Origin: Alphaproteobacteria bacterium
GTDB taxonomy: Bacteria > Pseudomonadota > Alphaproteobacteria > JBFXJJ01
Direction: 5' to 3'
Length of the DNA: 64,000 bases
Assembly (NCBI GenBank): GCA_050175015.1
Contig: JBFXJJ010000002.1
Coordinates: forward strand, 64,001-128,000
Position 1 is the stretch's first letter. Each line of letters begins with the position of its first letter. Positions 13,316 through 15,432 of the stretch are shown piece by piece. The notes beneath the pieces were generated by a model, which made no database searches, had not been told where the DNA came from, and was given only the letters and a program-made list of their open reading frames with translations. Made by a program: the position numbers and the translations under genes.

Positions 13316-15274
13316 TTACGTTTTTCTAATTTTATCAATAAAGCTTGCAACTTCGTTTTTAAGCTCTGCAGATTTTTCAGATAGCTCTTTAGATGCAGAT
13401 AAAACTTGATTAGCAGCTGAACCAGCTTCGCCTGCGGCTTGAGTTACTCCACCAATGTTGCTTGAAACTTCGGTTGTTCCTTGAGAGGCTTGTTCAACAT
13501 TTCTTGAAATTTCAGAAGTTGCCGCCCCTTGTTCTTCAACGGCACTTGCTATTGCTGTTGAAATTTCATCAATTTTATTAATAACATCACCAATTCTAGT
13601 AATAGCCTCAACGGCACTATTAGTTTTTTCTTGAACATCAGAAATTTGACCAGAGATTTCTTCGGTTGCTTTAGCTGTTTGATTAGCTAAATTTTTAACT
13701 TCACTAGCAACAACCGCAAAGCCTTTGCCTGCATCGCCAGCTCTTGCAGCTTCAATAGTTGCATTAAGAGCAAGAAGGTTAGTTTGATTAGCAATATCAG
13801 TAATTAAATTAACCACTTCGCTAATTCTTTGAGCTGATTCTGCTAAGCTACCAACAATTTCATTAGTTGAATGAACTTCATTAACTGCTTGTTTTGCAAT
13901 CTCTGATTCTTCTGTTACTTGCCTTGATATTTCAGAAATAGAAGCTGATAATTCTTCAGAAGCGGCGGCAACTGTTTGAACATTAGCAGCAGCCTGCTCT
14001 GATGCTGCGGCAACTGCCGTTGCCTGTTGTGCTGTCTGTTCTGATATAGCCGACATACTTTCTGCGGTTGAGTTTAACTCGGTTGATGCAGAAGATACAG
14101 TTTCTACAATTTCAGTTATAGTTTTTTCAAAATCAGAAATAATAATTTCAAGCTGTTTTAATCTTTCGATCTGTTTTTGTTGTTCTTTTTTAGCATCTTC
14201 TTCTAGCTTTTTAGCTTTAATAGAGTTATCTTTAAAAACTTGCATAGCTTCAGCCATATCGCCTATTTCATCTTTATTATCAGATTTTGGCACTTCTACC
14301 TGCAAGTTGCCTTCAGATAAACTCTTCATTGCTTTAGTCATATTAACAATTGGGTTAGCAATTTTACTCGATAATAGATAAGCAATTAAATTACCTAGCA
14401 AAAAGATTATTATAGTTGTTATAAAAAGAGTTCTTTTGACTATATTTGTTTGTGTAATATATTCACTTGTATCCATTGTAATTTCTATTACCGCAACATT
14501 TTTGCCCTCAAAATCTTGAATTGGTGCAAATAAAGTTGCAATTGGAGTATTGTTAATATTTCCATAGAGCAAACTTGTTTTGTTATTAAGAGCATTTAAA
14601 CGTATTTCTTTGGTAGCTTTTGGATTGCTTAAGGTTTCGGCGAAAGTTACAAACTCCCCATCTCTTTGAACATATAAGCCAATATCAACTCCAAAAGTAT
14701 TTTTAAATTCTTCCACTAATTCTTTACCAAAGCTCATGCCAAATTCAACCGAACCAGTATGATTGTTATTGTAAAACATTGGAACAACGGCTCTAATTCC
14801 TAAATCTCCAACTCCTTTTTCTAATCCCAAACTTTCTTTTTTATTTTTATTGGTATCAATAACCGTTTTACGAAAAGAAGATAAGTCATCACCAAATTTA
14901 TTAGGCATATGAGCTCTTAAAAAAGAAGTTGCAGGAGGTGTATGAAATTGGAATTGTGCAATTCCTATGTCTTTAGCTATGCCCTTATGAACTGGAAAAA
15001 AATTTGCCAATTCTTCTCTATTCCTTTCAGCAAAAAGCTTTTGCACATCTTCCATATTAGCTACAAACAAACTTAACGCTCTGCCAGTTTCAGCTCTTTG
15101 ATTAATAAAAGAATTAAAAGTTTGATAATAGCTATTAAGCTCTCTTTGTTCAGCTCTTTCTATGGTTTTGTTTAGTCCGTAGAAAAAAACAAAAGCAGAT
15201 ATAGCACTTGCTAAAACAAGCAAACCAATAAAAGCAATTTGAGTTTTGTATTTAATTGAAATATTTCTAAACAT
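13316..15274 (-). CDS. Methyl-accepting chemotaxis protein (TM, dCache_3-like sensor, TM, HAMP, signalling domain), carried on the element
   Basis: '[29 protein letters not shown]' Cache motif; 'DEIGDMA' [35 protein letters not shown]. Confidence 0.95.
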
Positions 15275-15321
15275 TTTTTATCCTTAATAATATATTTTTA
15301 TTTTTTATAAAAATTAAACTT

Positions 15322-15349
15322 ATTCTAAATTATTCTTTCTTGTTTTCAA
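15322..15349 (-). promoter_or_regulatory. Putative sigma70 promoter of the mobile MCP gene
   Basis: Minus-strand TTGAAA-16 bp-TAGAAT. Confidence 0.45.
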
Positions 15350-15358
15350 GAATTATTT

Positions 15359-15392
15359 CTCTCTCTCTCTCTCTCTCTCTCTCTCTCTCTCT
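15359..15392. repeat. (CT)17 / (AG)17 dinucleotide microsatellite
   Basis: Perfect 34-bp tract read directly from the sequence. Confidence 0.95.
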
Positions 15393-15432
15393 AGAAAAAT
15401 CAAGAGTTTATCAGTAATTTTTTTTATTTTCC

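Follow-up and report, generated by a model that had tools for sequence, protein, structure and literature searches.

A perfect (AG)17 tract upstream of the predicted promoter of an island-borne chemoreceptor gene in an alphaproteobacterium: a possible length-dependent promoter spacer

The element described here is a perfect (AG)17 dinucleotide tract found directly upstream of the predicted promoter of a chemoreceptor gene, which encodes a methyl-accepting chemotaxis protein (MCP), in a window of 64,000 nt (the whole stretch of DNA that was analysed) from an Alphaproteobacteria bacterium (assembly GCA_050175015.1, contig JBFXJJ010000002.1, positions 64,001 to 128,000). Both the tract and the gene are located inside an island of ~20.5 kb integrated at a tRNA-His gene (2991-3067), and a second island of the same genome carries a tract of the same length before another MCP gene. 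Judging from these sequences, the tract appears to be a real, maintained cis-element upstream of the promoters of the island MCP genes. It may act as a length-dependent spacer able to tune MCP transcription, a reading to which a probability of about 0.4 is given, while phase variation of the receptor is plausible but unproven.

The tract is reported by Tandem Repeats Finder as TC x17.5 with 100% matches on the plus strand (15358..15392), the sole period-2 row among the 49 rows obtained for the window, which confirms to the base an earlier description of the locus made from the letters alone (the sequence-only reading), where a perfect 17-unit tract had been noted as the only long dinucleotide tract present. 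Together with the A that follows it, the tract forms a 35-bp period-2 run (15358-15392), and the homopurine run in which it is contained spans 37 nt (15356-15392) and holds a perfect period-2 mirror repeat, i.e., it has the symmetry and the length (~30 bp or more) expected of sequences that may adopt H-DNA. Along the minus strand, the relaxase stop codon (15433-15435) is followed by a 40-nt spacer, (AG)17, AAATAATTC (9 nt), TTGAAA, 16 nt, TAGAAT, AAGGA and the ATG of the MCP gene, with 85 nt between the final G of the tract and the ATG, so that both distances given in the sequence-only reading, 9 bp to the TTGAAA-16-TAGAAT site and 85 bp to the start codon, hold.

Within the 2.53 Mb of the assembly (49 contigs, 35.5% GC, no N), only two dinucleotide runs exceed five units, the tract of the window and a (TC)17 on contig C8, and the same two tracts are the only homopurine runs of at least 30 nt. 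Given that every other dinucleotide run of the genome has five units or fewer, a tract of 17 perfect AG units is not expected by chance. A perfect dinucleotide run of 17 units also far exceeds the size from which frequent slippage is expected, even in cells proficient in repair.

The promoter was predicted by a consensus scan of the two hexamers, scored out of 12, in which this site reached 10, the top score of the minus strand, tied with that of a second site near parD (13036..13007). The transcription start, taken from the predicted promoter, would lie near 15315, which would place the tract, ending 9 nt upstream of the -35 element, at about -43 to -77. The promoter assignment is supported by the motif GAAATAA..CTTGAA, which begins with the last G of the tract and has only three copies in the genome, each 76-98 nt before the start codon of an MCP gene and each with a TAnAAT hexamer 16-18 nt after TTGAAA. 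Given its own promoter, its Shine-Dalgarno-like sequence and a terminator-like hairpin (minimum free energy of -17.5 kcal/mol, z of -3.5, with 0 of 200 shuffles folding equally well), the MCP gene looks like a self-contained transcription unit.

Parts of the stretch are also found in 20 public runs, all represented as contigs assembled with k=31; one of them, a landfill metagenome, is probably the source run. In a sludge run labelled as metatranscriptomic cDNA (X3), four contigs with at least 99% identity cover only 13295-15279, ending near the MCP start codon and just past the stop codon with no unlike flanking sequence joined to them, a pattern consistent with a monocistronic transcript of the MCP gene, but the run is marked as probably DNA. 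Neither these contigs nor a loose end at 15309 in run X2 were used as evidence, as both runs are either shallow or doubtful in library type.

The comparison that bears most directly on the tract is offered by the genome itself, where four paralogous mobilizable islands of the tRNA type (sister islands) share relaxases with 83-88% protein identity but differ in their cargo; the island of the window is called C2, and those on other contigs of the same genome are called C8 (L008), C10 (L009) and C3 (L010). The C2 and C8 islands share one layout, in which the relaxase stop codon is followed by a spacer of ~40 nt, a 17-unit tract, AAATAA-NN-CTTGAAAAC and an MCP gene. In C10 and C3, other cargo comes straight after the relaxase stop codon, with no tract and no MCP, and thus the tract is a part of the MCP module, not of the transfer backbone.

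In the alignment of C2 with C8, the spacer is identical at 31 of 40 positions, plus two gap columns (78%), the tract at 34/34 and the next 17 nt at 15/17, while the rest, to just past the ATG, is unrelated (54/93). Both immediate flanks of the tract are therefore more conserved than the surrounding intergenic DNA, and the last 14 nt of the spacer (CTTGAT-TTTTCT type) are kept in the C8 island in nearly identical form. The probability of 35 unchanged positions is ~1.3e-4 at the 78% identity of the spacer and ~4.7e-3 if the 4.1-kb backbone block from the relaxase onward (85.8% identical) is taken as the reference, and such low values argue that the purity of the tract has been kept by selection, by continuing slippage through which interruptions are lost, or by gene conversion. 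The sequence-only reading of the locus is partly supported, in its geometry, its mobility and its link to the host pathway, although it had omitted the two-island module and the homologous promoter that has no tract.

In the mechanism proposed here, the tract would separate a conserved distal flank, ending in CTTGA(T/A)TTTTCT, from a core promoter formed by AAATAA-NN-CTTGAAA, 16-18 nt and TAnAAT, and replication slippage would add or remove AG units, each of which (2 bp, ~69 degrees) would shift the distance and the helical phase of the distal flank with respect to RNA polymerase. The transcription of the MCP gene would move up or down as a result, in a graded or an on/off manner that would be heritable and reversible, and the tract, as a mirror repeat of purines, may in addition make the promoter responsive to supercoiling. 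By analogy with known systems, a position of -43 to -77, between a conserved flank and a core promoter, would be one at which repeat length matters.

The poly-T tract of sabA in Helicobacter pylori, which reportedly tunes transcription as a repeat upstream of the core promoter, had been offered in the sequence-only reading as a precedent together with nadA; the spacing mechanism makes these genes further precedents, but the closest one is the GAA repeat of vlhA (pMGA) in Mycoplasma gallisepticum, next to which the AG tract would be placed within the class of promoter-upstream simple repeats. The vlhA repeat is described as lying ~40 nt before the start site between two conserved flanks, as having long been held active only at 12 units, i.e., 36 bp, and as acting by a proposed mechanism of flank spacing (PMC6258824). 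The AG tract resembles it as a homopurine repeat of 35 bp that lies ~40 nt before the inferred start, with both flanks conserved between C2 and C8. On the other hand, the vlhA repeat is a trinucleotide that belongs to a large surface-antigen family of a pathogen, with documented variation and paralogues that differ in repeat number, whereas the AG tract is known from two copies of equal length (17 units) and a tract-less paralogous promoter, and belongs to a chemoreceptor on a mobilizable island of an environmental alphaproteobacterium.

In nadA of Neisseria meningitidis, TAAA repeats alter the spacing of distal promoter elements and so tune transcription (PMC2791445). Both nadA and sabA differ from the present locus in their repeat units, their known regulators (NadR and IHF; ArsR), their role as pathogen adhesins and the demonstrated polymorphism in length. 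The sole precedent found for a chemoreceptor, in a limited literature search, is tlpB of H. pylori, the expression of which is graded by a variable G-repeat through the RepG small RNA (PMC8295292), although this repeat is a homopolymer of the mRNA leader that acts post-transcriptionally, whereas the AG tract lies upstream of the predicted promoter.

Several observations weigh against a tract that varies in length and tunes transcription. The tract copies are only two, both in one genome, and their equal length of 17 units despite the divergence of their flanks is the sole comparison at hand; a fast, neutrally drifting tract would not give equal lengths, and this equality counts against variation. 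In copies that have diverged by 14-22%, it is possible that the length is under selection, that a recent conversion was limited to the identical block of ~46 bp formed by the tract with its immediate flanks, or that mutability is low. The genome also encodes MutS (a 928-aa frame) and MutL (a 631-aa frame), by which slippage loops of 2 nt should be repaired, and no other contingency-type repeats were found genome-wide, a single C9 run being the sole further candidate, which together lower the prior for a classical strategy of phase variation.

The promoter itself also adds to these doubts, as its start site is predicted, the region shows no excess of promoter-like sites overall relative to shuffles (11 vs 9.1 +/- 3.0) and no binding factor is assigned to the distal flank. 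In addition, the third copy of the promoter motif precedes a chromosomal MCP gene on contig C14 and has no tract, from which it follows that the promoter itself does not require the tract, which is an addition to a promoter that can exist alone.

Searches for relatives of the tract extended the comparison to other sequence sets. A relaxase profile recovered 64 loci in genome_contigs and eight in metagenome_contigs, all with 57% identity or less; dinucleotide runs of more than five units were present in none of the former, and the latter, scanned for AG/CT tracts of at least six units only, had none. A flank-anchored tract pattern gave 0 matches in viral_contigs, the best 10 matches in a plasmid collection had at most 9% cover at 66-68% identity, with no record covering 80% of the query, and there was no true match among 40 DNA-level relatives.

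Among 400 other genomes of the same class, AG tracts of at least 12 units are found in 15, and in the 11 of these that were examined the tracts have 13-95 units and unrelated flanks and contexts; long AG tracts alone are thus uncommon but not unique in the class. The class genomes with long AG/CT tracts include L089 (G037:C9), L088 and L094, one with ~95 GA units and the others with 13-23.

The explanation that comes nearest to the preferred one would keep the tract functional and its length fixed, as a homopurine/homopyrimidine mirror repeat of 35-37 bp that acts through H-DNA or as a rigid spacer, not as a stochastic switch, and that insulates the MCP promoter from the relaxase operon 40 nt upstream or confers sensitivity to supercoiling, with its length held by selection. 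This is somewhat improbable but deserves serious attention, given the 17 units in both diverged islands, the presence of mutS and mutL, the perfect mirror repeat, which falls in a length class known for H-DNA and for the stalling of polymerases (PMC11667243), and the minus strand between the relaxase stop codon and the tract, where no terminator-like site was found. Constancy of this kind would, however, need continuous selection, as a run of 17 units is generally regarded as prone to slippage, the triplex itself is putative, and in the C10 and C3 islands the relaxase gene is followed by no element of this sort. A neutral microsatellite, born once by slippage in the ancestral MCP module and carried without function, is rather unlikely: the sporadic occurrence of long AG tracts in the class and the tract-less C14 promoter would agree with it, but two copies flanked by DNA of 78% identity would not be expected to keep the same length with zero interruptions, the same placement directly upstream of the -35 element and immediate flanks conserved above the neighbouring intergenic DNA. 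That the tract or its length was made by the assembler is hardly credible, even though the assembly is derived from a metagenome and both copies are equal in length. Overlaps of exactly 127 nt between contig ends, seen at two junctions, point to a de Bruijn k of 127, so that a 35-bp tract is spanned by single k-mers with unique flanks; a collapse of k-mers behind the two equal tracts was rejected on this basis. The two independent loci have different unique flanks, and 17 units is thus the consensus allele at both. In four public runs (X1, X2, X3 and X5; k=31), the contigs stop or are masked at 15347-15402, and those of the source run break precisely there, as would a low-complexity tract of more than 31 nt that is present in the reads be expected to cause. 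The assembly artefact that the sequence-only reading had allowed for is therefore not borne out.

It is quite unlikely that the tract marks or promotes a recombination junction at which MCP sensor modules or cassettes are exchanged into the islands. The homology of C2 and C8 stops 17 nt past the tract, just beyond the -35 element, and resumes after HAMP in the signalling domain, with unrelated sensors in between, and copies of the relaxase 3' end bracket the tract and the MCP gene in both islands; triplex-forming repeats can also attract transposition (PMC2886061). The breakpoint, however, lies beyond the conserved -35 element and not at the tract, no recombinase is linked to the tract, the cargo of C10 and C3 varies although these islands have no tract, and the shared promoter motif and signalling domain would already provide enough homology for exchange. 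Even less probable is a role at the RNA level, in which the tract would be transcribed by read-through from the relaxase gene or from an upstream start and would act in the mRNA leader, e.g., as the target of a C/U-rich small RNA. The lack of a minus-strand terminator between the relaxase gene and the tract would permit this, and the tlpB/RepG precedent is itself a chemoreceptor (PMC8295292), but downstream of the tract there is a good predicted promoter that three MCP genes have in common, Rfam gave no family at 12000-18000 with E up to 1, and no partner RNA is assigned to the tract. The possibly RNA-derived X3 contigs also leave the tract uncovered, though contigs break at the tract anyway.

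The island that carries the tract is bounded by a direct repeat of 93 nt with 85% identity between its copies (Table 1), and the genes of its minus strand follow the order integrase, CHC2/Toprim/DUF3631 primase-like, DUF5338, NikA, MobA/VirD2 relaxase, tract and MCP, ParDE and type I restriction-modification, the last interleaved with a nucleotidyltransferase/substrate-binding pair and an AbiJ/HEPN gene; its variable cargo begins directly past the relaxase stop codon. With a tyrosine integrase, att repeats at tRNA-His, NikA and a relaxase, and no match to type IV secretion system families among the 28 open reading frames scanned, it is an integrative mobilizable element, and most of its cargo is of the defence type. 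No match to RF01760, the IncP-type origin of transfer, was found in 1-30000. MCP genes are carried by 0 of the 72 related relaxase loci (64 from genome_contigs and eight from metagenome_contigs), and MCP cargo is thus unusual for this element family, in agreement with the sequence-only reading, which had considered it unusual for a defence element; the Pfam domains, the tRNA-His gene and the 93-nt repeats likewise agree with its placement of a full-length Cache MCP within the att boundaries.

Table 1. Features of the C2 island around the AG tract (positions in the window)
Feature	Position	Strand	Basis
att repeat at tRNA-His 3' end	3022..3114	+	direct-repeat search
ParD/ParE toxin-antitoxin pair, block 94% identical to C8 island	12469..12986	-	Pfam, alignment
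39-nt copy of relaxase 3' end, 87% identical to 15433-15471	13066..13104	-	repeat search
Terminator-like hairpin with U run, just past MCP stop	13249..13294	-	folding
MCP, 652 aa, dCache_3 + HAMP + MCPsignal	13316..15274 (ATG 15274)	-	Pfam
Shine-Dalgarno-like AAGGA, 6 nt before ATG	15285..15281	-	sequence
-10-like TAGAAT, 16 nt past -35 (predicted)	15327..15322	-	consensus scan
-35 TTGAAA (predicted)	15349..15344	-	consensus scan
Motif AAATAA-NN-CTTGAAA, including -35	15344..15358	-	conserved, promoter-proximal
GAAATAA..CTTGAA, longer motif form, first letter the last G of the tract	15345-15359	-	3 genome copies
(AG)17 tract	15392..15359	-	Tandem Repeats Finder and sequence reading
A-rich spacer, 40 nt, relaxase stop to tract	15393..15432	-	31/40 identical to C8
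MobA/VirD2-type relaxase, 595 aa	15433..17220	-	Pfam
Tyrosine integrase	21401..22564	-	Pfam
Distal att repeat, copy of tRNA-His 3' part	23502..23594	+	direct-repeat search

The copied relaxase 3' end consists of the last 12 codons and the stop codon, measures 39-47 nt across the islands (the C8 copy is at L008:8696-8742) and brackets the tract and the MCP gene, as direct repeats with the relaxase gene itself, in both C2 and C8, where it is followed by ParDE in a 94% identical block; when read on the plus strand, it resembles a terminator, with a hairpin and a T run. These bracketing repeats could be a recombination site or the relic of one ancestral event of insertion or accretion, and a single ancestral duplication or accretion event suffices to explain them. 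An integron-type cassette was considered and rejected, as IntI is absent, the MCP gene is not promoterless and the repeats on either side of it derive from the relaxase 3' end. The integrase, with its Arm-DNA-binding and phage-integrase domains, is read as a putative phage-type (P4-like) enzyme, not as IntI.

The cargo of the C8 island includes an Eco57I/MmeI-like enzyme, an ABC-3C system (DUF2326, MC6, CTD10), ParDE and a Gp49/HI1420 pair, with a HigBA-like pair after its MCP gene, and an IS1595-family transposase is found near the C3 island.

The C2 receptor is a full-length protein in which sensor, HAMP and signalling domains are found together (dCache_3 at an E-value of 1.5e-38 and MCPsignal at 1.3e-34, by Pfam). 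The C8 receptor (L008:9608-11770) has a Cache_3-Cache_2 sensor unrelated to the dCache_3 of C2, while the C-terminal signalling domains of the two (~270 aa) are ~93% identical, and thus the pair looks like the product of sensor-module swapping on a shared backbone. In a search of 5.8 billion proteins, the nearest full-length homologue of the C2 receptor was the host's own dCache_3 paralogue on C14 (52% identity), followed by Rhodospirillales-type MCPs (~50%), and a near relative of its signalling half was found in an ENA contig (P0013, 88% identity over 53% of the query). For the C8 receptor, the nearest homologue is a chromosomal paralogue on C1. These MCP homologues, like the relatives of the relaxase, agree with an alphaproteobacterial host.

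Among the 12-13 MCP signalling-domain paralogues of the host, the closest chromosomal one to the signalling domain of the island MCP (C19) is 81% identical. CheW domains are encoded at four places in the genome, including a 917-aa CheA-like frame. Given homologues in the lineage's own MCP family, the island receptors are diverged members of it and should couple to the host chemotaxis pathway, a claim already made in the sequence-only reading for which the supporting machinery is thus present. A second MCP gene of the window (24015-26051, plus strand), encoding 678 aa with HAMP and MCPsignal but without a sensor domain recognised by Pfam, is chromosomal, as it is located just beyond the distal att repeat.

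MCP genes on mobile elements that work with the chemotaxis pathway of the host are reportedly found on plasmids of Pseudomonas putida, as NahY on NAH7 and McpT on pGRT1, and mobile chemoreceptors are therefore not new as such. These plasmids, however, are catabolic or tolerance plasmids with related cargo and no repeat-based control, whereas the present MCP gene is carried by a tRNA-integrated island with defence and toxin-antitoxin cargo. A broader interpretation, speculative and rather doubtful at present, is that of a transferable chemoreceptor slot, in which a repeat-gated promoter and a shared signalling module would be combined with swapped sensors (dCache_3 or Cache_3-Cache_2), the level of the receptor would be set stochastically by AG slippage, and the whole would be delivered by a mobilizable defence island.

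To our knowledge, nearly all descriptions of repeat-driven switching of expression concern host-adapted pathogens and their surface antigens or restriction systems, and within a limited literature search we know of no other chemotaxis contingency locus that is carried by an integrative mobilizable element or belongs to a free-living alphaproteobacterium. If the length-dependent spacer is real, it would extend the phenomenon to a new function (a chemoreceptor), a new lifestyle (that of an uncultured environmental alphaproteobacterium) and a new vehicle (a mobile island), and it would imply that bet-hedging can apply to sensory behaviour that was itself gained by horizontal transfer. The genome provides a natural design, as the tract is present in two islands and absent from the homologous chromosomal promoter, while the other two sister islands have no such module, and read data with length polymorphism would raise the interest of the locus. 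If the tract proved invariant, it would still be of some interest as a homopurine mirror repeat of 35 bp whose length is kept constant just upstream of a bacterial promoter.

Finally, other repeats and genes were observed in the window. Short G-rich repeats of the GGGGCTACC type are present at both ends of the island (3111-3158 and 23359-23406), and CCCTCTAC/GTAGAGGG repeats are found near 3236 (3236-3251) and in the tail of the primase-like gene (17943-17963). At 26983-31331, two squalene/phytoene-synthase genes adjoin an amine-oxidase-type flavoprotein gene, an arrangement that resembles that of the hopanoid precursor genes hpnCDE.

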